A model generated the notes under the pieces. The model was given only the letters and a program-made list of their open reading frames with translations, ran no database searches and was not told the origin of the DNA. The position numbers and the translations under genes are program-made. From assembly GCA_043799385.1 (NCBI GenBank), contig JAZDNV010000026.1, positions 1 to 13,420 on the forward strand: a stretch of 13,420 nucleotides of DNA. The letters are read 5' to 3'. Of this stretch, positions 1 to 13,420 are shown piece by piece (within the stretch, counting starts at the first letter, position 1; every line of letters starts with the position of its first letter). Origin of the DNA: Candidatus Aenigmatarchaeota archaeon (GTDB lineage Archaea > Aenigmatarchaeota > Aenigmatarchaeia > GW2011-AR5).

Positions 1-540
1 ACAGCCAAGATTGACTATCGTTTCCAGTTCGCAATCGACATTCCTTCTCAACTTCTCTAGTGCAGCAAGCATGCGGTTGAAATTCGGCGGCAGCGTTATG
101 CGTTCGACGCCTATATCTTCAAAATATTTCGCTGTGTTTGCCGAATTGACTCTTCCGAAGAGCCCGAGTTTTATCCTCCAATGCGGGTATTCTTTTCTCA
201 CTAGCTCCACTAAATATGGATTCGATACGGTTATTATGTCAGCGTTCAGGTTATTTACCCACTCAAGATACTCGAACATCCCTTTCCTAAAATCTTTGTC
301 GAACTCCTTTCCGCCAAAACAAGGCGCGTTCACAAGATAGTTAAACTTAATTCCACATGAGTGGACGAAATCTACATGTTCCTTTGCCTTCTCTTCATTA
401 ACACTTGGTAGTGTAGATGTCGGTCTACCACCGCCCACGATGCTAGTACTTGTACAACCGTAGACTTCGCGGACGTTTTGAAATGTTTTTAGTTGCTCGA
501 TTAAATCGTCATCCCAAGAAGTTGGAACAGAGAATTTCAT
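1..540 (-). CDS. U32 peptidase-family protein (Fe-S hydroxylase-like), 5' part only, runs off the window start
   Basis: Manual translation from the ATG at 540 is open to position 1 (180 codons): MKFSVPTSWDDDLIEQLKTFQNVREVYGCTSTSIVGGGRP...HVDFVHSCGIKFNYLVNAPCFGGKEF...IITVSNPYLVELVRKEYPHWRIKLGLFGRVNSANTAKYFEDIGVERITLPPNFNR...CELETIVNLGC. GGGR, H.xG.KFNYLxN.xC, GVxRIxL...NR and NxGC are typical of U32. It is missing from the ORF track because it has no stop in the window. It starts 4 bp after the upstream stop codon. Confidence 0.85.
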   Translation of the reverse strand, partial: MKFSVPTSWDDDLIEQLKTFQNVREVYGCTSTSIVGGGRPTSTLPSVNEEKAKEHVDFVHSCGIKFNYLVNAPCFGGKEFDKDFRKGMFEYLEWVNNLNADIITVSNPYLVELVRKEYPHWRIKLGLFGRVNSANTAKYFEDIGVERITLPPNFNRMLAALEKLRRNVDCELETIVNLGC

Positions 541-544
541 TCTT

Positions 545-1504
545 TCACGCAATCTCTAGTATAACGTCTTCCAGTTGCGGAACATTTTCGGATATATTAT
601 AATTTTTACAGAGACCGAACTCATATTTCATGACATCTTTCCTGTTTTCATTCCATGGAACATAAATCCTGAACTCGCTTGATTTGTACGCGTTCATTTT
701 GTCTGTTATGTTCAATCCGTATTCTTCGTAATAAGCCCCGACGACTTTATCGGAATTGTTATAAGTTATTGCAAGTGCTTTGTCGAGCGAGCCTGCAACC
801 GCTTTTATTGTATTTTCATCAATGCCTTTCTTCGCAGCTATGACAGAAGGCATGAGGTACGTTCCGTACAGTTTTATGCATTCCTCATCCATATCAACAA
901 TCTTCTTTAACTTCAACCTCTCCACGTCCGGAACGTTTTCGACTGAGAGCATGCCTGCGTCTACATCACCCTTCTGAATCAACTGGGGTATGACCGGCAG
1001 CGGTTTTGCTATCAGAGTGACATCATTCAAGCTCATGTTGTTTTTTACAAACAAGTCTTGCAAGAATAAGGTTGAGAGCCATGTCAGCCCACCGATTGCC
1101 ACAGTCTTGCCTTTCAGGTCCTTTATCGATGTTATGTTTGAATCCTCCCTTGCAAATATGATGCTGTATGTCCTTCCATGCGGATATAGAATCCTCCAAT
1201 CATTATTTTTGTTCCAGGCTATCGTGAATACAGGAAGCGTGACCATGCCCATGTCTGCTTCGCCGTTGATGAACATGTCGTTCCATCGTTCTGACGGCAC
1301 AAGGTTTATTTCAACGTTTTTTGGTAATTCAACAAGACCATTATCTACACTCCACTTGAATCCATAACTCCATGCGTTGTTCATGAAAACAAGCTTAACC
1401 TTTTCTTCTTTTTTGCTGCTTGTAGAATTCAACGCATAGATGGAAAAAATCGCAATTATTGCAATAATCAGAACTGCTATTATGATATATTTTTTAGACA
1501 TCAT
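545..1504 (-). CDS. ABC-type substrate-binding protein, SsuA/TauA/NMT1-THI5-like (PBP2 fold), with N-terminal membrane anchor
   Basis: The N-terminus is basic then hydrophobic (MMSKKYIIIAVLIIAIIAIFSIYA). It carries the motifs NGEADMG, SNITSIKDLKGKTVAI and IQKGDVDAG. The start is set at ATG 1504 (ORF track: TTG 1507; 1501 also possible). Confidence 0.85.
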   Translation of the reverse strand: MMSKKYIIIAVLIIAIIAIFSIYALNSTSSKKEEKVKLVFMNNAWSYGFKWSVDNGLVELPKNVEINLVPSERWNDMFINGEADMGMVTLPVFTIAWNKNNDWRILYPHGRTYSIIFAREDSNITSIKDLKGKTVAIGGLTWLSTLFLQDLFVKNNMSLNDVTLIAKPLPVIPQLIQKGDVDAGMLSVENVPDVERLKLKKIVDMDEECIKLYGTYLMPSVIAAKKGIDENTIKAVAGSLDKALAITYNNSDKVVGAYYEEYGLNITDKMNAYKSSEFRIYVPWNENRKDVMKYEFGLCKNYNISENVPQLEDVILEIA

Positions 1505-1526
1505 CAACAGAAATTACGTTTTTGCG

Positions 1527-1535
1527 TATTTAAAA
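1527..1535 (-). promoter_or_regulatory. Putative archaeal TATA box for the substrate-binding protein/U32 pair
   Basis: TTTTAAATA on the minus strand, 22 bp upstream of ATG 1504. Confidence 0.5.
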
Positions 1536-1550
1536 CCATTCCTATCGTTT

Positions 1551-2861
1551 CTATAAATCCAAGCCAAACAGATGCAGCGTGTAAAATGGCATTGGCTTTG
1601 CGAATAAGTTCAGCGGCGGCGGGTCATGGAACGTTGGCTCAAGCAAATCAGTGTCTTTATTTATTCCATTATTCTTTAATGCAATCTCTGCTATCTTTGT
1701 ACGCGGAAAGATGTGTATCCTGCTGAATTTTACGTAACCACTTAACCCAAGTTTGCGTATTTTATCCACTAATGCAAACGTTTCACCTAACGTGCCCATC
1801 GTTTCTCCAGGCACGTTTAGCAGCATGTTGAACAACGTATTAACCCCTTTGAAATCCTTCATCACGTTGGCGGCTTTCAGGATATCCTTAGTCGTCAACT
1901 CTTTCTGCAGTGTTTTCAGCATCTTGTCCGATCCGCTGTCCGGCGAGAACGTGAACTCGTTGCAGCCAGCTCTTACGGTCTTTTCAACAAGCCTTTTGCT
2001 TATTATGTCTTCCCTGAAATGGGTCGACCAATTCATACCAACCTTACTCTTTATCAGCGAATCGCATATATTTTCAATATGCGATTTCGGATGAAATATA
2101 CAGTCAGCCAAAAAAACATTGCTTATTCCAAAATTATTCCTTAAAATTTCAAATTCACCGACAACTGATTCTGGCGACCGCAGCCTTATGCATGAGCCCT
2201 GGATTATCGAGTACATGCAATAAATACATTTGAAGTTGCATCCGCGCCGCGTTTCCACTCCAATGCCGTCATAAACGCTGAAGTCTTTCGGCAATCCCTG
2301 CAATTCGAAATCCGGAATGAAGTCTATATTCTTCATCGGCTCGCGCTTCTCGGTGAAGACTACTCTGCCATTCTTCCTATAACAAATACCTTTGACTCTT
2401 TCAGGATTGCTCAGGTTTTTCAGCAGGTCAAGGAACGTCTCCCCGCCTTCGCCGACGATGCCGACGTCGATATCGAACCGTTCCATGAGCTCATTGGCAA
2501 ATGCGGTAAAGCTGGCTCCGCCGACTATCACCTTTGAGCCAGATTCTTTCACGATTTTTATTGTTTCATCGAATACTTCCAGCTGTGCGTCTGCTGGAAC
2601 GCCTCGTATGTAAAGGTTTCTCAATGAAATGCCAACGACATCGTAATCTTTTTTTTCCAGTCGTTTCCTCAACTCAGAAAAAGGGTTGCTGACGAGATTC
2701 ATGTCGAATATCTCTGCAGAGTGGCCGTGCTTTTCCAGGTATGTCCCAATCTTCGCCAGCCCGATTGGAAAAAATCTCTGGTTGGGATTGACGTCCCAGT
2801 ATTTGTTCGAGCGTACTTTCTCAGGTTTCTGGCTCAGCAAATTTATCAGTAAAACGTGCAT
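1551..2861 (-). CDS. Cobalamin-binding radical SAM protein (VGISLRN-type, resembling TsrM-like or lipid-associated B12 rSAM families)
   Basis: The N-terminal B12-binding domain shows FPIGLAKIG, DVVGISLRN, VIVGGASF and GIVGEGG. The rSAM motif is ETRRGCNFKCIYC (CxxxCxxC), followed by RSPESVVGE and NVPGET. The likely start is ATG 2861 (MHVLLIN) rather than TTG 2879. Confidence 0.88.
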   Translation of the reverse strand: MHVLLINLLSQKPEKVRSNKYWDVNPNQRFFPIGLAKIGTYLEKHGHSAEIFDMNLVSNPFSELRKRLEKKDYDVVGISLRNLYIRGVPADAQLEVFDETIKIVKESGSKVIVGGASFTAFANELMERFDIDVGIVGEGGETFLDLLKNLSNPERVKGICYRKNGRVVFTEKREPMKNIDFIPDFELQGLPKDFSVYDGIGVETRRGCNFKCIYCMYSIIQGSCIRLRSPESVVGEFEILRNNFGISNVFLADCIFHPKSHIENICDSLIKSKVGMNWSTHFREDIISKRLVEKTVRAGCNEFTFSPDSGSDKMLKTLQKELTTKDILKAANVMKDFKGVNTLFNMLLNVPGETMGTLGETFALVDKIRKLGLSGYVKFSRIHIFPRTKIAEIALKNNGINKDTDLLEPTFHDPPPLNLFAKPMPFYTLHLFGLDL

Positions 2862-2883
2862 GAAATCAACTATCGGCAAATAA

Positions 2884-2892
2884 TTTTATAAA
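2884..2892 (-). promoter_or_regulatory. Putative archaeal TATA box
   Basis: TTTATAAAA on the minus strand, 22 bp upstream of ATG 2861. Confidence 0.5.
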
Positions 2893-2898
2893 TGAAGT

Positions 2899-4464
2899 TT
2901 ATTTATCGTACCAGCTAGGTTTTCTTTTTGCCACACCCTCCTCGTTGAAAAGACCTGGCGCAACCGCTCTCGAAATAAACGGGTCGAAAAACAATCTCAT
3001 CATCAGGGCAAGCGGACTCCTACTCCTGATAAAGTATTTGAATCCCAGCAACTTTACGTTATCAATATCCATGAAAGGCATTTTTTTCATATACCTCAGG
3101 AATTGATAAAAATAAAATTTGATTGTGACGTAGTTCCTTAACTCAATCATCTCCTTTTTTGTGAGGTATTTTGTGCGTATTATCGGCTCTGATGTAAAGT
3201 CGTACTTCCTGAAGTCGTAATTCTCTATCAATCCATCTTTTTTTGCTTTTTTCCACAAATCTGAACCAGGCAATGGCGTGTAAAACTGGAATGGTGATAT
3301 ATCCATCTTTAATTCAAGCGCATATCTTAGTTGTCTTAGCATTGACTCCCGCGTTTCATCTGCTATGCCAACTATGAAGGTCCCCTGTTTCATAACTTCA
3401 GGATACCTCTCGTTCATTATCCGAGCACACTCTTTTACTATGTCAACGTTCTTGTGTTTTGCATTCATGTCCTCAAGCTCTTCAGTTGTTGCCCTTTCTA
3501 CGCCTATCAGTACCTGACGCAAGCCCGATTCAACCATCTTCTTGAAAATGCCAAGTTTCTCGTCCCTTACTATATCCTCAGCGCGCATGCCGTTTGAGAA
3601 CCATACTATATCTAAATTTTTCTCTATCAATTTTTCCGAGAATTCCCTGCTCCATTCCGGGTTAACGTTCCACGCGTCGTCTGTAAAGAAGAAAACCCTG
3701 ACCTTATATTTATGATACAGGTTCTCTATTTCCCTTATAGTTCTGTCAACACTCTTCGTTCTCCATCTTGAATATCGGCAAAGGCGACCCTTGGTAATTC
3801 TTTCCTCTGCCATCTGTGGCCAGCATATGCAGAATTTGCAGTGGCCAATACAACCGCGGGAGTGGTGCAAAGTGACCATCGGATTTAACACAAAGCTATT
3901 TTCAGTATACCTATGCATCGGCATAAGTTCGTATGCAGGAAACGGAAGATCATCAAGATTTTCAATAAGAGGTCGTGGCTTTGTTCTAATTATCTTTTCG
4001 TTTTTGCCCTTGTATGCAATGCCTTTTATCTTCCTAAATTTTTTCCGCGGTTTCTGTAGCTCTTTAACTAATTCCAGCAATGTGTATTCGCCTTCACCCC
4101 TGACGATGAAGTCTATCGGATATTTGCTCAAGCTGTCTTCAAACATGCTGGAGTGGTGGATGCCGCCGGCAACTGTCACGGTCTTTGGGTTTATTTCCTT
4201 TGCCATTTTGAAGAGCTTGCCGTCTTCATGCGAGTAGCAGGTTTCAGAGCCAGCACCAATCACGTCTGGCTTTTTCTTTTCGATTATTTTCCTTAAACTT
4301 TTCCATCCTATCTTCTCTATACAACAATCGATAACTTCTACTTTGATATTATTTTCTTTCAGAATACTCGCTAAGCATAGAAGGTTCTGCGGCATCATGA
4401 AGTTCTCGAATTCCTCAAACATCGTCCATATGAATTTTGGTGGTCTGACAAGCAAGACTTTCAT
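2899..4464 (-). CDS. Cobalamin-binding radical SAM protein (class B / BchE-like architecture)
   Basis: 521 aa. It begins MKVLLVRPP and the B12 domain shows KPDVIG, VAGGIH, IVRGEGEYT and LDDLPFPAY. The rSAM motif is SRGCIGHCKFC (3829-3852), followed by FTDD, IGVE, FIVG and YTPLPGS. Confidence 0.9.
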   Translation of the reverse strand: MKVLLVRPPKFIWTMFEEFENFMMPQNLLCLASILKENNIKVEVIDCCIEKIGWKSLRKIIEKKKPDVIGAGSETCYSHEDGKLFKMAKEINPKTVTVAGGIHHSSMFEDSLSKYPIDFIVRGEGEYTLLELVKELQKPRKKFRKIKGIAYKGKNEKIIRTKPRPLIENLDDLPFPAYELMPMHRYTENSFVLNPMVTLHHSRGCIGHCKFCICWPQMAEERITKGRLCRYSRWRTKSVDRTIREIENLYHKYKVRVFFFTDDAWNVNPEWSREFSEKLIEKNLDIVWFSNGMRAEDIVRDEKLGIFKKMVESGLRQVLIGVERATTEELEDMNAKHKNVDIVKECARIMNERYPEVMKQGTFIVGIADETRESMLRQLRYALELKMDISPFQFYTPLPGSDLWKKAKKDGLIENYDFRKYDFTSEPIIRTKYLTKKEMIELRNYVTIKFYFYQFLRYMKKMPFMDIDNVKLLGFKYFIRSRSPLALMMRLFFDPFISRAVAPGLFNEEGVAKRKPSWYDK

Positions 4465-4490
4465 AATTATTCCTATAACTGTGATATAAG

Positions 4491-4497
4491 ATTTAAA
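4491..4497 (-). promoter_or_regulatory. Putative archaeal TATA box
   Basis: TTTAAAT on the minus strand, directly after the chorismate mutase stop and 26 bp upstream of ATG 4464. Confidence 0.4.
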
Positions 4498-4794
4498 TCA
4501 TTCAGTTTCAGAATAGCAGGTTTTATCTTTTCTATTGATTACGTTTTTCTGCGTTTTTATAGAATACTTTATTATCTCTTTCATCAATCTCTTTCCAAAG
4601 GCAGGGTCTATACCTTTTTTACCGCAGTTATCGGCGAATTTTTTCAGGACTACTTCCTCTCTTTTCAGGTGCCTTAATTTAATTCCGCGGGATTTCTTGT
4701 ATTTCGCCATCTCCTCGACAATTTTCATTCTCCTGCCGAGCACTTCTGCCAGCTCATAATCAATTGAATCTATCTTCTTCCTCAGTTTCTCCAT
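4498..4794 (-). CDS. Monofunctional chorismate mutase, AroQ class (type II)
   Basis: MEKLRKKIDSIDYELAEVLGRRMKIVEEMAKYKKSRGIKLRHLKREEVVL...IIKYSIKTQ. Equivalents of E. coli chorismate mutase residues R11, R28, K39, R51, E52, S84 and Q88 are recognisable. The start is set at ATG 4794 (98 aa), because the ORF-track start at 4839 overlaps the divergent gene. Confidence 0.88.
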   Translation of the reverse strand: MEKLRKKIDSIDYELAEVLGRRMKIVEEMAKYKKSRGIKLRHLKREEVVLKKFADNCGKKGIDPAFGKRLMKEIIKYSIKTQKNVINRKDKTCYSETE

Positions 4795-4801
4795 ATTCCA
4801 C

Positions 4802-4832
4802 TTATATATTTCTTCCTGCATATTTTTAATAA
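4802..4832. promoter_or_regulatory. Pair of interleaved divergent TATA-like boxes
   Basis: On the plus strand, TTATATAT at 4802-4809 lies 24 bp before ATG 4834. On the minus strand, TTATTAAAAATA at 4832-4821 lies 26 bp before ATG 4794. Confidence 0.45.
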
Positions 4833-4833
4833 G

Positions 4834-6300
4834 ATGCAAATGAAAATAGAACGCTACGAAAAATTTATAATTTTATCCATACTCTTGTGCATGCTTTTGC
4901 TCAGGGCATACAAAATAACCGTTGCTCCGGGCTTAGAAGCTCCGCAGAGCCTTGACGAGAATTACATAGGGATGTATGCAGCAAAAGTCATGAACGGCGA
5001 GATGATAACATCGCTTTTTTACTACATAGGACCCCATGGGATATATATCGCCACAATTTCATCCTATATATTTAATTTAAACATATTTTCCATTAGGTTT
5101 ATTTCCGTATTGATATCAATATCATCTTTCTTGATTCTTTACTATCTTGTAAGGGACAGGTACGGGTTCAAGACAGCTGTCATATTTTCGTTAATGCTCC
5201 AATTGCTTCCGTCATACATTATACAGATAAGACCGTTCTATACCCACATGATTAATTACCTCCTGTTTATACTGATATTCTACCTGTTGTTCAAATTTGA
5301 CGCTACAAAGAACAGGAACATAATTTATCTCATCGCATTCCTGATAGGTTCTTCCATAGCAATACACATACACGCAATTTACTTCATCGCAGCGCTGCTC
5401 GTCTCGTCAATAATCTTGAAAATTACAATACCAAAAAAATATATCATATATTCGCTGCCTTTCCTTTTGATAGGAATGATTCCTTTTATATATTATAACC
5501 TGACCCCGTGCGATACAGGAGAACTGTTCTGCACGTTCAAGTACGTACAATCCAATGTTTTTCTTACCGGAAAGGGCATATATAACATAGAAACAATGCA
5601 GAATTTTATAGGACTTTCGAAAGTATTTTTATTCAGTTCTTTTAACATATGGCCAAGTTTGGATTACCTTTCTCCACCGGAAATTTTTATATCGTGTTTG
5701 TCTCTATTCACATTTTTTATACTAATAGCGGCTTCAGTGATTTATGCGGCGATGAAAAAAAACAAGACTGATTTATTTTTGATATTCTTCTTAGGCATTT
5801 TTTTCATTGAGAATATATTCACTTTAGGCGGTATAGGGCCGTTCACATTATTGATTCTGCTACCCGTCTTATTTATTCTAATTTCAAACCTTATATCAAA
5901 ATTTAAAATTCATATAATTGCTTCGATAATAATTTTTGTAATTGTATTGAATTCATTAGCCTTTATGAAATATTTCGATAATTTCAAAGATAACGATGTG
6001 GCAAGCATTGAAAATGTGGCAGAATACGTCAAAGATGCTCAAAAGAAGAATGTCGTGGTCGACGATTGGATAGTATATTATGCGATGGTATTCCATGTCG
6101 GGAATGAAAAGAATGTCTACCGATGCTACAGTTATAATGAAACAGAAGACAGCGTGTTCGTCTTTTATAGCATACCAGCGTTTGCGCAGGAATGGTTCAC
6201 CATGAAGGGAACATACATAGCGTGCAGTGATGAATTTTATTCGTGGGTGAATCAATACCTGAGCCCAAAAACAATCGGAGAATACAATATTTTTAGCTGA
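4834..6300 (+). CDS. GT-C fold integral membrane glycosyltransferase (ArnT/PMT-like)
   Basis: 488 aa with many hydrophobic segments. The first TM helix ends in LLRAY, the external loop has an acidic DE motif (QSLDENY), then come IFSIRFIS...LYYLVRDRYG and a soluble C-terminal domain. An alternative start is at 4840. Confidence 0.8.
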   Translation: MQMKIERYEKFIILSILLCMLLLRAYKITVAPGLEAPQSLDENYIGMYAAKVMNGEMITSLFYYIGPHGIYIATISSYIFNLNIFSIRFISVLISISSFLILYYLVRDRYGFKTAVIFSLMLQLLPSYIIQIRPFYTHMINYLLFILIFYLLFKFDATKNRNIIYLIAFLIGSSIAIHIHAIYFIAALLVSSIILKITIPKKYIIYSLPFLLIGMIPFIYYNLTPCDTGELFCTFKYVQSNVFLTGKGIYNIETMQNFIGLSKVFLFSSFNIWPSLDYLSPPEIFISCLSLFTFFILIAASVIYAAMKKNKTDLFLIFFLGIFFIENIFTLGGIGPFTLLILLPVLFILISNLISKFKIHIIASIIIFVIVLNSLAFMKYFDNFKDNDVASIENVAEYVKDAQKKNVVVDDWIVYYAMVFHVGNEKNVYRCYSYNETEDSVFVFYSIPAFAQEWFTMKGTYIACSDEFYSWVNQYLSPKTIGEYNIFS

Positions 6301-6595
6301 CTTTCTTGAATAAAGAAAGCATGAACTCTTTATTTTTATACATGGCCAGTGCAAACAATACCAAATTCAAGAAAGTGGTTTCCAGAAATATGTTCATCTC
6401 ATTCACTGGTATTTTTAAAATTATCATGGAAGAGAACATCATAATAGGTATTATCACGATGCTAAGGCCGATGCTCACTCCTATCCTTTCCAGAATATTC
6501 AGTTCATCCTTCTTGAAAATACAATAGGTCATAAGAAGTCCTGGTATGAGGAAGAAGTAAACTATGCTGAAAGCAGCCTTCAAAACCTCTATCAT
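6293..6595 (-). CDS. Small membrane protein, DUF1616-like
   Basis: 100 aa with about three TM segments. It has the motifs FFLIPG and LNILERIGVSIGLSI seen in archaeal DUF1616-type proteins. It overlaps the glycosyltransferase 3' end convergently by 8 bp. Confidence 0.7.
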   Translation of the reverse strand: MIEVLKAAFSIVYFFLIPGLLMTYCIFKKDELNILERIGVSIGLSIVIIPIMMFSSMIILKIPVNEMNIFLETTFLNLVLFALAMYKNKEFMLSLFKKVS

Positions 6596-6697: not shown

Positions 6698-6771
6698 TAA
6701 TGTTAGTCATTAATATAAATCATTAACGATTGACATTGATGTCAGTTAATAGACATTAATGACTAACATTA
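6698..6771. repeat. Perfect 17-bp inverted repeat with 40-bp spacer
   Basis: TAATGTTAGTCATTAAT (6698-6714) and its exact reverse complement ATTAATGACTAACATTA (6755-6771). Confidence 0.9.
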
Positions 6772-6776
6772 ATGTC
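6706..6776. promoter_or_regulatory. Array of 12-bp palindromic operator-like sites (consensus GACATTAATGTC)
   Basis: GTCATTAATATA at 6706, ATCATTAACGAT at 6719, GACATTGATGTC at 6732, GACATTAATGAC at 6752 and AACATTAATGTC at 6765. The spacing is mostly 13 bp and the array lies directly upstream of a wHTH gene. Confidence 0.6.
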
Positions 6777-6788
6777 GAGAAGAGAAAA

Positions 6789-6995
6789 ATGGAGTCAATT
6801 TTGACAGAGGAATTAATCCTCGACATCCTGCGTAGGGCTGAAACTAGCCTTACCATTCTAGAACTTGCTAAAAGGGCGAATCTGCATCGCGTGACTGCAT
6901 CTAAATATCTTGCTGTTCTTGAAGCCAAGGGCTTGATTAAACGACGTGATGTCGGCAAGGCTAAATTATATTCGTTGAGTGATAGGAATGGCTAA
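6789..6995 (+). CDS. Small winged helix-turn-helix DNA-binding protein
   Basis: MESILTEELILDILRRAETSLTILELAKRANLHRVTASKYLAVLEAKGLIKRRDVGKAKLYSL: an HTH followed by a beta-wing. The start is set at 6789 (68 aa), because the ORF-track start at 6759 lies inside the palindromic array. Confidence 0.85.
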   Translation: MESILTEELILDILRRAETSLTILELAKRANLHRVTASKYLAVLEAKGLIKRRDVGKAKLYSLSDRNG

Positions 6996-9900
6996 AATAA
7001 AGAGTAAAGGTTCGGTAGAGCCGTTCATACTCATAGCGATACTGCTGCTTGCAGGATTGGGAATAGCAGGCAACCTCATATGCGGTGCCGGCTCGACTGG
7101 CACATGTCCGACAGTAGGCAACGAGTGCACTGGCGCAGTGCTATGCAATTATCCTACATGCACGTGCATTGTTACAACCACCCAGACAATAGACTATAGT
7201 GCGATATACAATTTCACTAATCTCACGATAAATTCAGGCGTTACTGTCAGCGTTAATCAGGCTGTTGGAGGTGGCGCAGGAGGTGCTGGTGGCTGTAATG
7301 CTGCTGCAGGCGGTACAGGCAGTCCAGGCACAAGTGGTGCAGGTGCAGCAGCAGGCGGCGCAGGTGCTACTGCTTCTGGCGCAGGCGGCAATAATGCAGG
7401 TGGTGGCGGCGGTGGCGCAGGCGCAACAGGTGATACTTATGGTGGTTATGGCGGTGGCGCAGGCGGCGCAGGCGGCGCAGGCGGCTCAACTATGGGTGGT
7501 GGCGGAGGCGGCGGCGGTAAAGGAGGTTTAGGTGATAGTGGCGGTTGTGGACCAGCAGGCGGCGCAGGCGGCAACGGTGGCGGAAAAATCACGATTTATG
7601 CGAATAGAATCAATGTAATAGGCACTTTTAATGCAGTTGGCTCAACAGGAGGTTCGGTAAGCGGTGGTGGTGGTGGTGGCGGCGGTGGCGGAAATATCCT
7701 ATTATATGGTAACTATATCGCAATAAGCGGTACTGTCAGCGCTACAGGCGCTACAGGCGGTACAGGCAACCAGCAGGGCGGCGGCGGTGGCGGCGGTTAC
7801 GTTCTAAGAACATCTTCATGCTCGGATTCATTAACTGGTTCGGTATCCGTAGCAGGCGGCTCGCCTTCAGGTGGAGCAGGTACGAGCAGCACAGCGTCAG
7901 GCAGCGGCTGGTTCAACGTGACGAGCAATTGTACAGTCAACTGCGAGTGCGCTTCGAATAACTGCATATCGGATTACGATACTTACGGGCAATTTTGCTG
8001 TGCCTCTGGTCAATGCACTCATAATAACAACTGCTTCAGCAACGGCCAGACGTCAGAAGGCTATTCATGCTCGAGCGGCACGTGGGTCGTGCCTGCATTT
8101 GCAATAATATCGCCGGCGAATACAACACTAACCAAATCTGCGGTTGACTTCAACGTGAGCACTGGAATGAACACGAGCTGGTGCGGTTTCTCGTTGAACG
8201 ACACCGCGAACGTAACGATGACGAAATTAAACACAACCTATTTCAACTACACGAACTCATCGATGATCAATGGCTACTGGTATGTTAGATTCTACTGCAA
8301 CGACACAGGCGGCAGGATGGGCAACACGACTGCCAGGTACTTCACCGTTTTGTCATACACACCTATAATAACAAAGAATTCGCCGCTGAACAGAACGTAT
8401 TCATCATCTAATATTGACTTCAATGTCTCGTTGAACATAAATGGCAGCTGGTGCGGTGTGAGCATAAATGAAACAGCTAACATCACGATGGAAAGAGGAA
8501 CGCCAGTCACAAGCAGCGGCGGAACAACAACGACATCATCGAGAGCCTGGTGGAACACATCATTCCCGTACAGAAAAGCGATAACCATATGGAACACTGC
8601 AGGCGACCAAACGAATTATCAGGCCGCAGTGAATGTGAGCAATGCGACGTATGATAACAACGGATTAGTCGGCAGCTGGCACTTCTCCGAGTCCTCTGGC
8701 AACCTTTCAGCTGATAGTTCCGGCAGCGGCAATGACGGAACATGCACGAACATGCCTAACTCAAATTGTAACTTTACGACTGGAAAATATGGAAACGCAT
8801 TGAGCTTTGACGGAAGCGATGATTACGTTAGTAATACCGGGCTCAGTCCAAATATTAACGGAAATCTCACTTTAGCGTTTTGGTTTAAAGGAAATTTCAG
8901 TCATGCATATCAAGCAAGAATGATGGACTTGGCTCAATCATCTTCAACAGGTTTACAGCCGTCTATGACCACTTCCGGAACAGTAGGTATTGATAATGAT
9001 GGTGGACCTCTGACCACAATCTTTACGTCAACTTCTAAGAGTGACGGAAATTGGCATCACTTTGTTGTAACAAGGAGTGAAACAAACTATAGTGTTTATG
9101 TTGACAATTCGTATGTTGGTTCAGTAATTGGAACGGTTCCGACTTACACAAGGATTTTTATTGGTACTAGGTCTGGACTATCTAGTTATTTCAACGGCTC
9201 AATCGACGAGGTCCGCATATACAACCGCGCGTTATCCGCGTCAGAAATCGCCGACCAGTACAGTGCAACAAAATCGCGGCTCGATTACGGAGATTTGCGT
9301 TTCACTTACTACAACTCGACGTCAGGAAATGAAACGTTACTGAACCATTGGCAGGAGAACGACAACAAGGTCTGGGTCAATGTAACGTCGCTGGTCAATA
9401 ACACGAATACGACAATCTACATGTATTACGGCAATGCTTCTGCGAATTCGACGAGCAACGGCACGGCGACGTTCGAGTTGTTTGACGACTTTGACAATTT
9501 GAACAGTTGGACACAACAAGCAGGAACTTGGACCGTTGCCAATAGTATATTGACGGTACCTAATAGTGCAAATGTTTATCTACGGCATAATACACCAATC
9601 TCTCAATCCATATACGCAGTAGAAAGCAAATTCAAAATTACTACTGGCGTACGACAAGTAATGGATGTTGAAGCTAACAACCCTATGATTAATACCGCTG
9701 CACTGGAGGCAGAATATCGTAGTGATGAGGATAAAATATATTTACATTCAGATGCGATTAATCCTGCCAGTGCTAACTATACAATAGATACCAACACATG
9801 GTATATAAGAATCATAAAGGTTAAGTCTGGAGCCAATAAAGTTGGTATAGATTCAGCTACAAGGTCAAATTATACTGAAGTTACCCAAACCAACGATGGC

Positions 9901-12900
9901 TCAGGTACAGGCAATTATTTGGGGTTCCGCGAGAATAATGGTGGTCAGTCAGAGTGCGCTTGGATATTGGTCCGCAAATACGCATCATCAGAACCATCCC
10001 CGTCAATCGGCAGCGAAGAGACGTACAGCTGGTGGAACACATCATTCCCGTACAGGAAGCCAATAACGATATGGAACACTGCAGGCGACCAAACGAATTA
10101 TCAGGCCGCAGTGAATGTGAGCAATGCGACGTATGATAATAACGGTCTTGTTGGTTCGTGGCACTTCAGCGAGTCCTCTGGGAATCGCACAGCTGATTCG
10201 TCTGGAAATAGCAATGACGGAACTGTATATGCTGTCAACAACGATGACCCGTCTTCTGCCATGCTGAGCCAATCCGGTCTGGTTGCGTGGACTCCTGCAA
10301 ATCTTGTAGACAACGTTGTGACTACGGCCGGTTTCCATACTGATTCATCAGGAATAGGAAGTTACTTCAAGATAGATTTGGGTGCAGGCAACGCAAAGGA
10401 ATATGTCAAGGCAAGATTGTACGCTTATTCATCTACAGTCTATGCGACATGGGACATCTGGTATTCAGACGACAACTCAGCATGGACAAAAGTCTATACA
10501 GGAATGAGCATGTCAGCAGTGGGTGCGAATGCTTGGCAGAGTACAACATGGGATCCTGCAGGAGCGCACAGATATTGGATGTTCAACAAAACCGATGCAG
10601 CAGCAGGCGGTGGCTATCACGGCGAGCTCGAGATGTATTCATTGAATCGGACGACCGGGAAATACGGGAACGGTTTGCAGTTTGATGGTGTGAATGATTT
10701 TGTTAATATTACAACAATAAGTGTCCCAAGCAGCATTACTGTTTCGGCATGGGTGTATTCCACCAACTTCAGCGCTCCGATGATGGTTGTGGAAAAATCA
10801 CCTGTCAATGCCCAATGGGAACTCTACTTTGAAAATAACGCAGGAGTAACACGTGGAATAAAATGGAGAGGGGGTGCAGCTGATGAATCATGTGCCTCAG
10901 GCGACTGGCCGACAAGCTTGAATAATCAGTGGCATCATGTTGTTGCGACACAAAACGGAACCACATGCAATCTTTACATTGACGGCGTTCTAAATAAAAC
11001 TGCGACAATAAACGCTATAGGCAACGGTGCAGGCCCAATTTATATCAGCAGTTACGATGCAACTTCATATTGGTTCAACGGCACCATCGACGAAGTCCGC
11101 ATATACAACCGCGCATTATCTGCGAGTGAAATTGCTGACCAGTACAATGCAACGAAATCAAGATTGGATTACGGAGATTTGCGGTTCACATACTACAATT
11201 CATCGTCTAATACTGAAACATTATTGAACCACTGGATTGAGAACGACAATAAAGTGTGGGTGAACGTCACATCATTGCTCAACAACACGAATACGAAAAT
11301 ATTCATGTATTACGGAAACGCTTCTGCAAATAGTACGAGCAACGGAACGGCGGTGTTCGACTTCTTCGATGACTTTTCTGGCACGGCGATAGATACAACA
11401 AAGTGGGATGAGACCGATTCAGGTAGCTATATTTATCAGAATAATCGACTCATAATAAGTGAGGGTCCTGGTAACTGGGGTAATGTAGCTTTATTTAGTG
11501 ACTCTACTTTTGCTCGCACTTCAGGTAGTCTTTATAGAGAACTCATATTCAAGATGCAGTCGATGTGCCAGAGGGGCGCATCATATACAGAGACTACCAT
11601 GTGGGGCTGGAAAGATACAGGAGCAGGCGTCAGCTATACAGATATGCCACATGCTTTGTACCATTATAACAGTGGAACACCTACTGTAGATATTTATGAA
11701 GATGGTACAAGTCGTGGTACTTTTGGTACCTTTGTTTGTGGCACCCAGTACTGGGGCAAGGTATCTCTAACCGCAAACGGAGCAAAATATTACAAAAGCA
11801 CAGATGGAAATAGCTGGACACTTATCTACACAGGAACAGCTTCTAGCGAGACACCGCTTAAGGTAGGTTTAACACATTATCAGGGCGGGGATAGCTATTT
11901 CGATGATGCATTTGTCCGCAAATACGCATCAACAGAACCATCAGTATCGATGAACAGTCAGGAAGGCTACACAGGAACCACAATACAAACCGTTGCAGGA
12001 CAGACAACGACATATCCTTTCAACCTCACGAAGAGCATGGCGGATGGAACGCACTCTGTGATGTTCTACTGCAACGACACCGTAATCGGCGATATGGGCA
12101 ATACGCCACTCACGTACTTCAGCGTTGATACGGTTCCGCCAACCCTCACTGCATTATCACCAAGCAACACGACATACTCCACAACAGCAATGAATTATTC
12201 GGTAAATGCAAATGAGGAAGTCTCGTTCTGCTCGTATTCGTTGAACGACGGAGCGAACCAAACGATGAACAAACTGAATGCAACGTCATACAATGTAACA
12301 GCAGCGACAACAGATGGATTCAAGAAGCTCGTGTTCTACTGCAACGATACCGCGAACAATACTGGAACATCGAGTGCAAGTTACTTCACTTTAGATTTAC
12401 CGCCGACAATAACAATAGTATCGCCGCTGAACAAGACGTACACGAATACAGTGATAGATTTCAACGTATCCTTAGATCAGACAGGCAGTTGGTGCGGCGC
12501 ATCGATAAACGAGACTGCGAACATAACGATGACAAAATTCAATAATACTTACTTCAATCTTACAAAAACATTGCCTGAAGGTCTACACAACGTAACGTTC
12601 CACTGCAATGACACGAATGCAATGATGGGCAACACTACAAAGAATTTCTTCACAATTACTGTGATAACTGTTGCATCCGGGCTCACGATGAAGTCAGAAA
12701 CGCACAACCTCACGTTCGAGATAGAAATGAATTCGACAATCGCTGCAGGAACGCTCGCGACTGTGAACTACACGATATTCAATCCTGATCCGTATTGCAG
12801 CGATAACCTGACGACTGGCTATTGCGACAAGAATCATACTGATTACATAAACGCATCTGAAATCCGTCTGTGGTTCGGCGAAAATCTTACGTATCAGACG

Positions 12901-13420
12901 CTGTCGATATTGATACAGGGATACGAAGAAATCCTTGGTCGTTACACAGTTGCAGTGCCGTCAACTGACACGAACTGCATTGACATCAAAGCAGAATTAG
13001 TTTACAACGACAAGTTCAACACGACGAGATTCGTAACTTCGAATATTCTGCAGCGCGGGTCGTGCCCGTCGTTCAGAAACGCAACGAACGCAACGTGCCG
13101 CTATGCGCACGACTGCTTAGAGGGATTATACTGCCTCGACTCAAATAATGATACGATACCTGACACGTGCAAGAACCAGACAGCGAGCTTGAATAATTCT
13201 CATTACGGCTATCTATGCGATTACAGAAGCGCTGCAATGGAAGAGCGCGTTGACATAAATGGCCAGTGCAAGTTCGCGTCAGCAGGAACACACCACCGAA
13301 ATCTGCCAAACGGATACAACTGCGAATATGAAGACGACTGCCTCGGTTACTATTGCTGGGACACCGATGGCGATCGCATCAAAGAATGTACCAATACTGC
13401 GACAGCAGGAAACGCGACAG
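6988..13420 (+). CDS. Giant secreted or surface glycoprotein, putative adhesin (>2144 aa, runs off the window end): Gly-rich, Cys-rich, Ig-like, DUF2341-like, LamG and discoidin-like domains
   Basis: Read codon by codon from ATG 6988 with no stop before 13420, and absent from the ORF track. It starts MAKIKSKGSVEPFILIAILLLAGLGIA. SD-like GAGTGA is at 6977-6982 and the gene overlaps the wHTH stop by 8 bp. LamG motifs (LVGSWHF, FDG.DDYV, WHH.V, FNG.IDEVRIYNRALS) occur twice, and so do DUF2341-like motifs (WWN..FPYRK.ITI, DYGDLRF, VWVNV, IYMYYGN, FDDF, VRKYAS.EP). Confidence 0.92.
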   Translation, partial: MAKIKSKGSVEPFILIAILLLAGLGIAGNLICGAGSTGTCPTVGNECTGAVLCNYPTCTCIVTTTQTIDYSAIYNFTNLTINSGVTVSVNQAVGGGAGGAGGCNAAAGGTGSPGTSGAGAAAGGAGATASGAGGNNAGGGGGGAGATGDTYGGYGGGAGGAGGAGGSTMGGGGGGGGKGGLGDSGGCGPAGGAGGNGGGKITIYANRINVIGTFNAVGSTGGSVSGGGGGGGGGGNILLYGNYIAISGTVSATGATGGTGNQQGGGGGGGYVLRTSSCSDSLTGSVSVAGGSPSGGAGTSSTASGSGWFNVTSNCTVNCECASNNCISDYDTYGQFCCASGQCTHNNNCFSNGQTSEGYSCSSGTWVVPAFAIISPANTTLTKSAVDFNVSTGMNTSWCGFSLNDTANVTMTKLNTTYFNYTNSSMINGYWYVRFYCNDTGGRMGNTTARYFTVLSYTPIITKNSPLNRTYSSSNIDFNVSLNINGSWCGVSINETANITMERGTPVTSSGGTTTTSSRAWWNTSFPYRKAITIWNTAGDQTNYQAAVNVSNATYDNNGLVGSWHFSESSGNLSADSSGSGNDGTCTNMPNSNCNFTTGKYGNALSFDGSDDYVSNTGLSPNINGNLTLAFWFKGNFSHAYQARMMDLAQSSSTGLQPSMTTSGTVGIDNDGGPLTTIFTSTSKSDGNWHHFVVTRSETNYSVYVDNSYVGSVIGTVPTYTRIFIGTRSGLSSYFNGSIDEVRIYNRALSASEIADQYSATKSRLDYGDLRFTYYNSTSGNETLLNHWQENDNKVWVNVTSLVNNTNTTIYMYYGNASANSTSNGTATFELFDDFDNLNSWTQQAGTWTVANSILTVPNSANVYLRHNTPISQSIYAVESKFKITTGVRQVMDVEANNPMINTAALEAEYRSDEDKIYLHSDAINPASANYTIDTNTWYIRIIKVKSGANKVGIDSATRSNYTEVTQTNDGSGTGNYLGFRENNGGQSECAWILVRKYASSEPSPSIGSEETYSWWNTSFPYRKPITIWNTAGDQTNYQAAVNVSNATYDNNGLVGSWHFSESSGNRTADSSGNSNDGTVYAVNNDDPSSAMLSQSGLVAWTPANLVDNVVTTAGFHTDSSGIGSYFKIDLGAGNAKEYVKARLYAYSSTVYATWDIWYSDDNSAWTKVYTGMSMSAVGANAWQSTTWDPAGAHRYWMFNKTDAAAGGGYHGELEMYSLNRTTGKYGNGLQFDGVNDFVNITTISVPSSITVSAWVYSTNFSAPMMVVEKSPVNAQWELYFENNAGVTRGIKWRGGAADESCASGDWPTSLNNQWHHVVATQNGTTCNLYIDGVLNKTATINAIGNGAGPIYISSYDATSYWFNGTIDEVRIYNRALSASEIADQYNATKSRLDYGDLRFTYYNSSSNTETLLNHWIENDNKVWVNVTSLLNNTNTKIFMYYGNASANSTSNGTAVFDFFDDFSGTAIDTTKWDETDSGSYIYQNNRLIISEGPGNWGNVALFSDSTFARTSGSLYRELIFKMQSMCQRGASYTETTMWGWKDTGAGVSYTDMPHALYHYNSGTPTVDIYEDGTSRGTFGTFVCGTQYWGKVSLTANGAKYYKSTDGNSWTLIYTGTASSETPLKVGLTHYQGGDSYFDDAFVRKYASTEPSVSMNSQEGYTGTTIQTVAGQTTTYPFNLTKSMADGTHSVMFYCNDTVIGDMGNTPLTYFSVDTVPPTLTALSPSNTTYSTTAMNYSVNANEEVSFCSYSLNDGANQTMNKLNATSYNVTAATTDGFKKLVFYCNDTANNTGTSSASYFTLDLPPTITIVSPLNKTYTNTVIDFNVSLDQTGSWCGASINETANITMTKFNNTYFNLTKTLPEGLHNVTFHCNDTNAMMGNTTKNFFTITVITVASGLTMKSETHNLTFEIEMNSTIAAGTLATVNYTIFNPDPYCSDNLTTGYCDKNHTDYINASEIRLWFGENLTYQTLSILIQGYEEILGRYTVAVPSTDTNCIDIKAELVYNDKFNTTRFVTSNILQRGSCPSFRNATNATCRYAHDCLEGLYCLDSNNDTIPDTCKNQTASLNNSHYGYLCDYRSAAMEERVDINGQCKFASAGTHHRNLPNGYNCEYEDDCLGYYCWDTDGDRIKECTNTATAGNAT
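7267..7908 (+). other. Glycine-rich domain of the giant protein
   Basis: Poly-Gly and GGA runs alternate with beta-strand segments (GGGKITIYANRINVIGTFNAVG, GGGNILLYGNYIAISGTVSATG, GGGYVLRT). Confidence 0.8.
8092..12660 (+). repeat. Four Ig-like repeats of about 85 aa (SP.N.TY...FNVS...WC..S.N..AN.TM...FYCNDT...MGNT...YF)
   Basis: Repeat 1 is at about 8092-8349. Repeat 2 is split between about 8362-8490 and 12019-12129. Repeat 3 is at about 12136-12396 and repeat 4 at about 12400-12660. The Ig-like fold is inferred. Confidence 0.75.
8548..11964 (+). repeat. Intragenic tandem duplication of a DUF2341/LamG unit (copy 1 about 8548-10020, copy 2 about 10030-11964)
   Basis: 71 bp are identical at 8587-8657 and 10069-10139. 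The block 9190-9492 is highly similar to 11074-11376, and GTCCGCAAATACGCATCA occurs at both 9970 and 11914. The segments between these blocks are divergent. Confidence 0.92.

Follow-up and report, generated by a model that had tools for sequence, protein, structure and literature searches.

A distinct subfamily of U32 proteins recurs beside B12-binding radical SAM enzymes: a chorismate mutase-headed gene cluster from Candidatus Aenigmatarchaeota

Why should a gene for chorismate mutase (CM) stand first in a row of genes that otherwise encode two B12-binding radical S-adenosylmethionine (SAM) enzymes, a solute-binding protein and a protein of the U32 family? The row is found in Candidatus Aenigmatarchaeota contig JAZDNV010000026.1, the whole 13,420 bp of which form the window analysed here, and no aromatic amino acid gene other than the CM is present in the window. 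A sequence-only reading of this DNA had proposed that the CM is a dedicated source of prephenate for an oxygen-independent U32 hydroxylase, in a pathway that hydroxylates and methylates a substrate. Its description of five co-oriented genes with gaps of 4-46 bp holds, as do its statement on aromatic amino acid genes and its gene identities, which are those found with Pfam (CM_2, B12-binding plus Radical_SAM twice, NMT1 and Peptidase_U32). All five genes lie on the minus strand. With the likeliest starts (CM 4794, rSAM1 4464, rSAM2 2861, binding protein 1504, U32 540) they are separated by 33, 37, 46 and 4 bp, and the U32 gene runs off the end of the contig. In order of transcription they are:

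4498..4794, minus strand: AroQ-class chorismate mutase, 98 aa; CM_2 72.7 bits, Pfam cutoff 27
2899..4464, minus strand: radical SAM enzyme 1 (rSAM1), 521 aa; Pfam B12-binding 59.7 bits, Radical_SAM 56 bits
1551..2861, minus strand: radical SAM enzyme 2 (rSAM2), 436 aa from the ATG at 2861 (open reading frame to TTG 2879, 442 aa); Radical_SAM 62.4 bits, B12-binding 53.1 bits
545..1507, minus strand: NMT1/SsuA-type solute-binding protein, 320 aa from the likely start at 1504; NMT1 48 bits
1..540, minus strand: U32-family protein, N-terminal ~180 residues; Peptidase_U32 (PF01136) 37.7 bits, cutoff 22.4

U32 and radical SAM genes are recurrent neighbours

The U32 protein of the window belongs to a subfamily whose genes are repeatedly found with those of B12-binding radical SAM enzymes (B12-rSAMs). 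For this comparison 77 loci were fetched, each consisting of a subfamily member and up to 10 kb of flanking DNA to either side. Open reading frames (ORFs) in the loci were selected by a greedy procedure of our own, so that some may be wrong; they were searched with the window proteins, and clustered neighbours were annotated with Pfam and NCBIfam. A B12-rSAM was counted at 50 bits or more to the window rSAMs, and adjacency means the same strand and within 200 bp of the U32 gene. Since the loci were picked via U32, the presence of U32 is by construction and the recurrence of the rSAM is the informative result.

The linkage that the sequence-only reading had singled out recurs in 32 of the 77 loci, from at least 10 phyla. 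The lineages are Omnitrophota, Thermodesulfobacteriota, Bacillota, Elusimicrobiota, Planctomycetota, Promethearchaeota, Thorarchaeota, Myxococcota, Minisyncoccota and Armatimonadota. The B12-rSAM gene is directly adjacent to U32 in 18 loci, and start and stop codons of the two overlap in three (L052, L056, L060). Some loci are arrays: L039 has three alternating U32-rSAM pairs and more rSAM genes, and L033 has about eight rSAM and two U32 genes.

Both window rSAMs have counterparts in such clusters. Orthologues of rSAM1 (380-408 bits) are found in U32 clusters of four loci from Omnitrophota and Planctomycetota, and an alignment of rSAM1 with L039:4614-6179, from an Omnitrophota metagenome-assembled genome (MAG), shows 43% identity over 458 aa. 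The top matches to rSAM2 among the fetched loci are from Promethearchaeota (164-174 bits, 27% identity) and sit beside an ABBA aromatic prenyltransferase and two to three U32 genes. It is thus well supported that subfamily U32 proteins and class B radical SAM enzymes constitute a recurrent functional module, of which the window carries one version.

No description of the U32-B12-rSAM combination was found in a search of the main text of articles, which retrieved only reviews and work on UbiUV, TrhP and RlhA; the sequence-only reading had likewise not recognised the whole gene combination as a described pathway. A term search in the ladderane gene cluster paper (Rattray 2009, PMC2649909) gave no mention of a peptidase or collagenase gene. 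New here are a distinct U32 subfamily, its cysteine pattern and its partner family. According to PMC10990095, no more than three U32 systems are known in which prephenate serves as an organic oxygen donor, and a function has yet to be assigned to most U32 subfamilies. A large subfamily that is spread across many anaerobic phyla, and is recurrently found with cobalamin-dependent rSAMs, is therefore a concrete place to seek O2-free hydroxylation chemistry. In little-studied lineages, among them Asgard archaea, DPANN archaea, the candidate phyla radiation (CPR) and Omnitrophota, it could also lead to new envelope glycans, lipids or quinone-like cofactors. The window cluster, completed with the full-length U32 of a relative, makes a small expressible cassette.

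The two B12-binding radical SAM enzymes

Both enzymes display the CX3CX2C motif, as CIGHCKFC in rSAM1 and CNFKCIYC in rSAM2, and score above the cutoffs of PF02310 and PF04055, which are the features of class B enzymes. NCBIfam scores of rSAM1 are 215.6 for BchE (TIGR02026, cutoff 481) and 164.5 for HpnJ (TIGR03471, cutoff 578), and those of rSAM2 are 299.8 for BzaD (TIGR04385, cutoff 450) and 223.8 for TIGR04072 (cutoff 360). Neither window enzyme reaches any curated NCBIfam rSAM cutoff. Judged from these similarities, rSAM1 is BchE/HpnJ-like and a member of neither family, and rSAM2 is BzaD/TIGR04072-like and below both cutoffs. The 436-aa form of rSAM2 is database entry P0001; its closest relatives, P0002 and P0003, share a 252-kb contig.

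The N-terminal B12-binding domain and the radical SAM core are shared with other class B enzymes (BchE, HpnJ, HpnR, BzaD and the 'lipid biosynthesis' family TIGR04072). The likeness to archaeal methylases of glycerol dialkyl glycerol tetraethers (GDGTs), to Grs and to the Ted desaturase is one of description, not of sequence comparison. According to parts of bioRxiv 10.1101/2025.10.20.683597, archaeal B12-rSAMs methylate and desaturate lipids anaerobically, and the known anaerobic route to hydroxylated GDGTs consists of Ted and the AttH hydratase, with no U32.

The U32 subfamily and its cysteines

The open-ended U32 ORF of the window has 184 aa and extends to a TTG at 552. Its product is 57-58% identical to P0119 (392 aa), and in a FastTree tree it groups with P0119 and P0121-P0124 with a support of 98. 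The tree holds a 180-residue fragment for the window and several long branches, and only statements on nearest neighbours are taken from it. P0121, P0122 and P0123 are three U32 paralogues, 59-61% identical to P0119, on one contig of 8,016 bp labelled 'MAG: bacterium'; thus the closest relatives of the window U32 occur in arrays. The subfamily is large, with 329 proteins reaching E<=0.001; in GTDB representative genomes, a relative is encoded at 595 of the 606 pattern matches.

An alignment of 30-37 subfamily members shows eight near-invariant cysteines. In P0119 numbering they are C78, C184-X3-C188-P, followed by two conserved histidines, then C221 and a C-terminal CX3-4CX2CX2C. We infer that eight cysteines would suffice for two Fe-S clusters, and the subfamily may work, by analogy, as a U32 Fe-S oxidase. 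The window fragment keeps the invariant residues of the subfamily and stops at the first cluster cysteine.

A search of the PDB with the subfamily profile matched only 5D88, the U32 domain of Methanopyrus kandleri (79 bits, E 1.9e-21, profile positions 49-200). This is the only solved structure matching the profile, and it consists of the N-terminal domain only; the CX3CP and C-terminal cysteine motifs are absent from the aligned part. Complex prediction for the U32 and B12-rSAM pair of L052 returned a score of 0.00, which is no verdict and is weighed neither way.

The closest functional comparison is with UbiU and UbiV, which act with UbiT. Like the window protein, they have the Peptidase_U32 domain and conserved cysteines of the Fe-S type; the related loci often contain U32 genes as paralogous pairs, and there is also a link to chorismate/prephenate metabolism. 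They differ from the subfamily, in which the cysteines are CX3CP...H...H...C plus the C-terminal CX3-4CX2CX2C, no SCP2/UbiT gene is seen, and the partners are B12-rSAMs, which the Ubi pathway does not use. The U32 domain is also common to TrhP (tRNA ho5U34) and RlhA (23S rRNA ho5C2501). Unlike these two, the subfamily shows no DUF3656, and its neighbours are metabolic rather than RNA-related. TrhP and RlhA are genetically dependent on prephenate and Fe-S, as reported in sections of PMC11574389 and PMC5727448.

Another set of proteins, family 'c43' (336-345 aa), flanks U32 in Omnitrophota and Paceibacterota (L015, L044, L046) and has no Pfam match. The structural neighbours of P0119 in the Atlas include clusters of hypothetical proteins of ~337 aa (TM 0.72-0.83). 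The c43 proteins may be divergent U32-like barrels.

Chorismate mutase and chorismate-related neighbours

The window CM was aligned, together with four U32-linked CMs, to residues 1-100 of E. coli PheA, and R11, R28, K39, R51, E52 and Q88 are invariant. We take these to be the active-site residues of the E. coli enzyme (1ECM). The window CM is probably active, since the PheA catalytic residues are kept. The CM_2 fold is, however, common to PchB-type isochorismate lyases, and the window CM might act on a chorismate analogue. The best NCBIfam model is CM_archaeal (TIGR01791), with 56.6-57.2 bits and a cutoff of 66.95; no curated CM equivalog cutoff is reached, and a PDB sequence search gave only weak CM/PchB matches. 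Thus, in comparison with other AroQ enzymes (the E. coli PheA CM domain and the archaeal monofunctional CM), fold and catalytic residues are the same, and the differences are that the window CM is monofunctional, is the first gene of a cluster that is not one for aromatic amino acids, and falls under the CM_archaeal cutoff. Alternative starts are an ATG at 4821 and a TTG at 4839.

CM genes in the loci were found with a profile built from CMs. They are present in seven of the 77 loci, in two lineages beyond the window: six loci are from Syntrophaceae or related bacteria and one is from a nanoarchaeote. In the six Syntrophaceae-type loci the CM lies downstream of U32-rSAM on the same strand, at a distance of 300-500 bp (L042, L055, L061, L070), ~3 kb (L056) or ~5.6 kb (L052). 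In the Nanoarchaeota locus (L057) the CM is one gene away from a row of APH, DegT, rSAM, U32 and U32 genes. The clade that adjoins the window group in the tree contains the L057 U32, and the deltaproteobacterial clade is distant; therefore the CM-U32 linkage arose at least twice.

Other genes connected with chorismate are seen occasionally. An ADH synthase gene, above its cutoff, lies 143 bp downstream of U32 in L008, and a dehydroquinate synthase II family gene adjoins U32 in L053. Shikimate genes are present in about nine of the 77 loci overall, which is not clearly above chance for 20-kb windows; of these links, we regard only a nearby CM and direct adjacency as suggestive.

A quinone-type cluster was observed in an unclassified bacterial MAG (L017:304-8318). 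It encodes a menaquinone-type UbiD (MqnL-type) decarboxylase (598 bits, above cutoff), a UbiA-like prenyltransferase, a UbiE/MpqE-like methyltransferase, a sugar-phosphate isomerase-like TIM barrel and a GFO/IDH oxidoreductase. Two U32 proteins accompany them, a member of the eight-cysteine subfamily and a UbiU/TrhP-like one. UbiU/V carry out their hydroxylation in just such a setting.

A tentative role for the cluster, and what weighs against it

The reading that we favour, tentatively and with a confidence somewhat short of even, is that of an oxygen-independent tailoring cassette of a probably archaeal anaerobe, in which the U32 protein would hydroxylate, prephenate would be the oxygen donor and the CM would supply the prephenate. 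It is drawn from the analogy with UbiU/V, TrhP and RlhA, from the context of the L017 cluster, and from the linkage to CM in three lineages, counting the window. In the proposed scheme the two cobalamin-dependent rSAMs would attack unactivated carbons by radical chemistry, with C-methylation as the most likely reaction. The Fe-S protein of the U32 subfamily would be the O2-independent hydroxylating or oxidising partner, and the AroQ CM at the head of the cluster would produce, on the spot, the prephenate that has been proposed to donate oxygen to U32 enzymes. That the rSAMs methylate, and that all enzymes of the cluster share one substrate, is what we infer from these parts, and a dedicated prephenate supply by the window CM is plausible on the same analogy. 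Passages of PMC10990095 give prephenate as the oxygen donor in UbiU/V-dependent hydroxylation, and its authors propose the same chemistry across U32 proteins. As for substrate classes, the gene surroundings of the relatives suggest lipids, lipid-linked envelope glycans, or small molecules that are aromatic or prenylated.

It is a speculation that the two electrons from a U32-type oxidation could feed the two consumed by B12-rSAM methylation; such an electron exchange would account for the repeated co-occurrence of the two families. A wider generalisation, which we consider doubtful, is that the U32 subfamily and class B rSAMs would be a widespread and so far unrecognised two-enzyme system for O2-free C-H functionalisation. 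It would combine hydroxylation and methylation, possibly with electron exchange and with prephenate as donor, and would act on lipids, glycans or aromatics in Asgard and DPANN archaea, Omnitrophota, Planctomycetota, Elusimicrobiota and Syntrophia. The window would then be a self-sufficient form with its own dedicated CM.

Several observations weigh against the favoured reading, and the first of these concern the U32 protein itself. The sequence-only reading had likened it to the RlhA, TrhP and UbiU/V hydroxylation factors. It lies outside those families: NCBIfam scores are 31.3 for TrhP (NF011996, cutoff 534) and 17.9 for UbiU (NF047963, cutoff 440), no RlhA-type model in NCBIfam matches the window protein, and none of six full-length subfamily members has an NCBIfam match at E<=1e-10. 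The window U32 is thus assigned, by sequence, to an uncharacterised subfamily. Sections of bioRxiv 10.1101/587956 and PMC11574389 give CX6CX15CX3/4C as the motif of most U32 families including RlhA, and the former also gives the variants CX6CX16CX38C for UbiU and CXnCX12CX3C for UbiV. CX6CX15CX3/4C is missing from the 30-37 full-length relatives, in which the only cysteine aligning with E. coli UbiU, UbiV, TrhP and RlhA is the first of the motif. Cysteines suited to Fe-S binding are present in these relatives, in a pattern other than the published one. Any window cysteines past the first are outside the contig, and the motif statements rest on the full-length relatives. Since the relatives are without the published motif, prephenate-dependent hydroxylation is an extrapolation for this subfamily; moreover, according to passages of PMC10990095, hydroxylation in vitro has so far been shown for no U32 protein.

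The neighbourhoods add further points on this side. No B12-rSAM of 50 bits or more is present in 45 of the 77 loci, including all 22 from Chloroflexota. CM is absent within 10 kb in 70 of them, and the seven CM-linked loci represent only two lineages. The genes aroC and aroA are convergent to the CM in L055 and L061, and aroC is found in L070 at the contig end; the deltaproteobacterial CM may therefore be a housekeeping enzyme. Recurrence of the CM-U32 linkage, which the sequence-only reading had made one test of its proposal, is seen in two further lineages, but most loci are without it and the larger set of linked CMs has shikimate genes alongside.

In addition, the binding protein has a hydrophobic membrane anchor at the N-terminus (its relatives have an anchor or a lipobox) and is, on that evidence, probably extracytoplasmic. 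Lastly, the start codons of four of the five cluster genes have a TATA-like box 27-35 nt upstream, as the sequence-only reading had cautioned:

4822..4829, minus strand: TATA-like box TTAAAAAT, 35 nt upstream of the CM ATG at 4794
4491..4497, minus strand: TATA-like box TTTAAAT, 33 nt upstream of the rSAM1 ATG
2885..2892, minus strand: TATA-like box TTTATAAA, 31 nt upstream of the rSAM2 ATG at 2861
1527..1534, minus strand: TATA-like box TTTAAATA, 27-30 nt upstream of the binding-protein start

These are four of the six matches to the TATA pattern in 4.9 kb of minus strand, and their spacing looks like that of archaeal leaderless transcription. An archaeal origin also fits CM_archaeal as the best CM model, the archaeal Atlas clusters nearest to the binding protein and the DUF1616-like match, the last of which is below its cutoff; the closest named relatives of the window U32, by contrast, carry only the label 'MAG: bacterium'. 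Because four genes have boxes of their own, co-transcription of the five genes is unproven. None of the four intergenic gaps contains a run of five or more T.

Alternative explanations

The CM could provide a carbon skeleton, instead of or besides oxygen. The U32 would then hydroxylate, and the B12-rSAMs methylate, an aromatic compound derived from chorismate or prephenate, such as a quinone-like cofactor or a secondary metabolite. Several of the U32 neighbourhoods fit such a role. ABBA aromatic prenyltransferases (PTase_Orf2) accompany U32 and B12-rSAM genes within the clusters of four loci, three from Promethearchaeota and one from Clostridia; the L017 cluster has UbiD, UbiA and UbiE family genes; U32 has ADH synthase as a neighbour in L008 and the dehydroquinate synthase II family gene in L053; and BzaD, the best curated match of rSAM2, acts on an aromatic base. 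Paenibacillaceae loci, in which genes for two ketosynthases (KS-KS), a cupin, an amidohydrolase_2 and an FMN reductase accompany HemN-like rSAMs, U32 and two B12-rSAMs, are also in agreement with it, and to judge from gene content they look like an anaerobic aromatic polyketide cluster. However, the window is without a prenyltransferase, a decarboxylase, a prephenate dehydrogenase or dehydratase, and an aminotransferase; rSAM2 is far under the BzaD cutoff; and an aromatic-pathway gene is absent from most of the 77 loci. We consider a skeleton-providing CM unlikely.

Loci from Paenibacillaceae and Clostridia (L040, L050, L058, L073, L069, L013 and L022) have a longer U32 of ~480 aa with a DUF2621-like C-terminal extension, in a cluster with KS-KS, cupin, amidohydrolase_2, FMN reductase and HemN-like rSAM genes. 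Their two B12-rSAMs are TIGR04072-like (297-315 bits, cutoff 360), and the ABBA prenyltransferase is present as well in L022.

A second possibility is that the substrate is an envelope lipid or lipid-linked glycan. An rSAM1-type enzyme, U32 and a GT-C glycosyltransferase would then form the conserved core, to which CM and binding protein would be incidental neighbours. The window has such a glycosyltransferase gene, divergent from the CM:

4834..6300, plus strand: PMT_2 (GT-C) membrane glycosyltransferase; Pfam PMT_2 37.8 bits

It is followed further along by a giant surface protein gene with 88 N-X-S/T sequons. GT-C genes (PMT_2, PMT or DUF2079) are present in ten of the 77 loci, together with glycosyltransferase, deacetylase, GDSL and amine-oxidase genes. 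All four loci with rSAM1 orthologues are among the ten, and hold PMT_2/DUF2079 along with GT1, GT2 or GT9, polysaccharide deacetylase or GDSL. The 22 loci from Dehalococcoidia/Chloroflexota (e.g. L003, L004, L009, L010, L016, L024, L034) have U32 beside an AMP-ligase gene, almost always divergent, and in many of them the fatty-acid genes for KS, short-chain dehydrogenase/reductase (SDR), acyl carrier protein (ACP) and PlsX are also next to U32. In the Nanoarchaeota L057, the DegT sugar aminotransferase and APH kinase genes lie upstream of rSAM-U32-U32. Against this, the PMT_2 and DUF1616-like proteins of the window have no phmmer match among all locus ORFs at E<=1e-3. The link to GT-C is thus at the family level only, and PMT_2 is a common gene family. 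Omnitrophota and Planctomycetota account for nine of the ten GT-C loci and Minisyncoccota for the tenth, and the tight spacing of CM and rSAM1 is left unexplained. An envelope substrate with an incidental CM is accordingly judged rather improbable. In four loci (L004, L009, L010, L037) a weak B12-rSAM-like gene was observed behind the AMP-ligase gene.

The five genes might also be chance neighbours that are transcribed separately: the CM for Phe/Tyr synthesis, the binding protein for an ABC importer, the rSAMs for, e.g., cobamide or lipid modification, and the U32 for RNA hydroxylation. The four TATA-like boxes, the 70 loci without CM, and a binding protein that is like ordinary archaeal NitT/TauT-type ones and has a counterpart near subfamily U32 in one of 77 loci are all in line with this. 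It is nevertheless very unlikely in view of the U32-B12-rSAM adjacency in 18 loci over several phyla and the rSAM1 orthologues in two bacterial phyla, and an RNA-hydroxylating U32 is at odds with the TrhP score far under the cutoff and with the lack of a match to an RlhA-type model.

That the subfamily U32 is no hydroxylase but an Fe-S redox or scaffold partner of the B12-rSAMs, for instance an electron donor or cobalamin reactivator, would suit the frequent translational coupling of the two genes, a cysteine pattern unlike that of the hydroxylase families, and eight conserved cysteines whose ferredoxin-like C-terminal motif suggests two clusters, but we hold it to be highly improbable, given that 45 of the 77 loci have a U32 and no strong B12-rSAM, among them L017, where a ring hydroxylase is the missing function.

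The binding protein

The sequence-only reading had counted the binding protein as a member of the pathway. It is instead an ABC-type solute-binding protein, probably exported, that resembles archaeal NitT/TauT-type ABC binding proteins, and it is probably not a core partner, although its 4-bp spacing to U32 is left unexplained. In the Atlas, the clusters nearest to it consist of archaeal ABC substrate-binding proteins (93-100% archaeal), and its structural neighbours are all of NMT1 families (TM 0.69-0.77). The family is rare: only 18 clusters match at E<=1e-10 in a set of 1.84 billion representatives. No ABC permease or ATPase gene is present in the window, in which the contig end is only 540 bp downstream, inside the U32 gene.

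Weaker Pfam matches of the protein are Phosphonate-bd (31.9 bits) and VitK2_biosynth (28.2 bits). An identity as MqnA/VitK2_biosynth was set aside on account of the export anchors in the protein and its relatives and its likeness to ABC binding proteins. The role of a conserved partner was rejected, since a comparable protein recurs near subfamily U32 in only one of the 77 loci (L053, 25% identity, a lipoprotein).

Other genes of the window

The remaining ORFs of the window are those of the PMT_2 glycosyltransferase, a DUF1616-like fragment, a small winged-helix-turn-helix protein and the giant LamG/DUF2341 surface protein. There is no match to a tRNA or an Rfam family within the 13,420 bp. 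The start codons of the CM and PMT_2 genes are at most ~39 bp apart (4794-4840) and the longest ORFs overlap; thus each promoter lies partly inside the coding region of the other gene. The divergent PMT_2 gene possibly belongs to the same unit as the CM cluster.

A 100-aa membrane ORF at 6293-6595 on the minus strand matches only the first third of the DUF1616 profile (26.7 bits, cutoff 31.6) and may be a fragment. A 78-aa winged-helix protein (MarR/IclR/TrmB-like) is encoded at 6759-6995 on the plus strand, directly upstream of the giant gene, the start of which it overlaps. The giant gene itself (6979-13419, plus strand) is open-ended, with more than 2,147 aa and a signal-like N-terminus. 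The protein has two Laminin_G_3 and two DUF2341 domains and a long internal duplication, in which a segment starting SWWNTSFPYRK is present twice; a Gly-rich stretch lifts the local GC content to 0.56.

Among the fetched loci, two from Asgard archaea (L026:14511-17485 and L012:17252-18193) have several small Ras/Arf/RagA GTPase genes a few kb from U32, which are unrelated to the genes described here.

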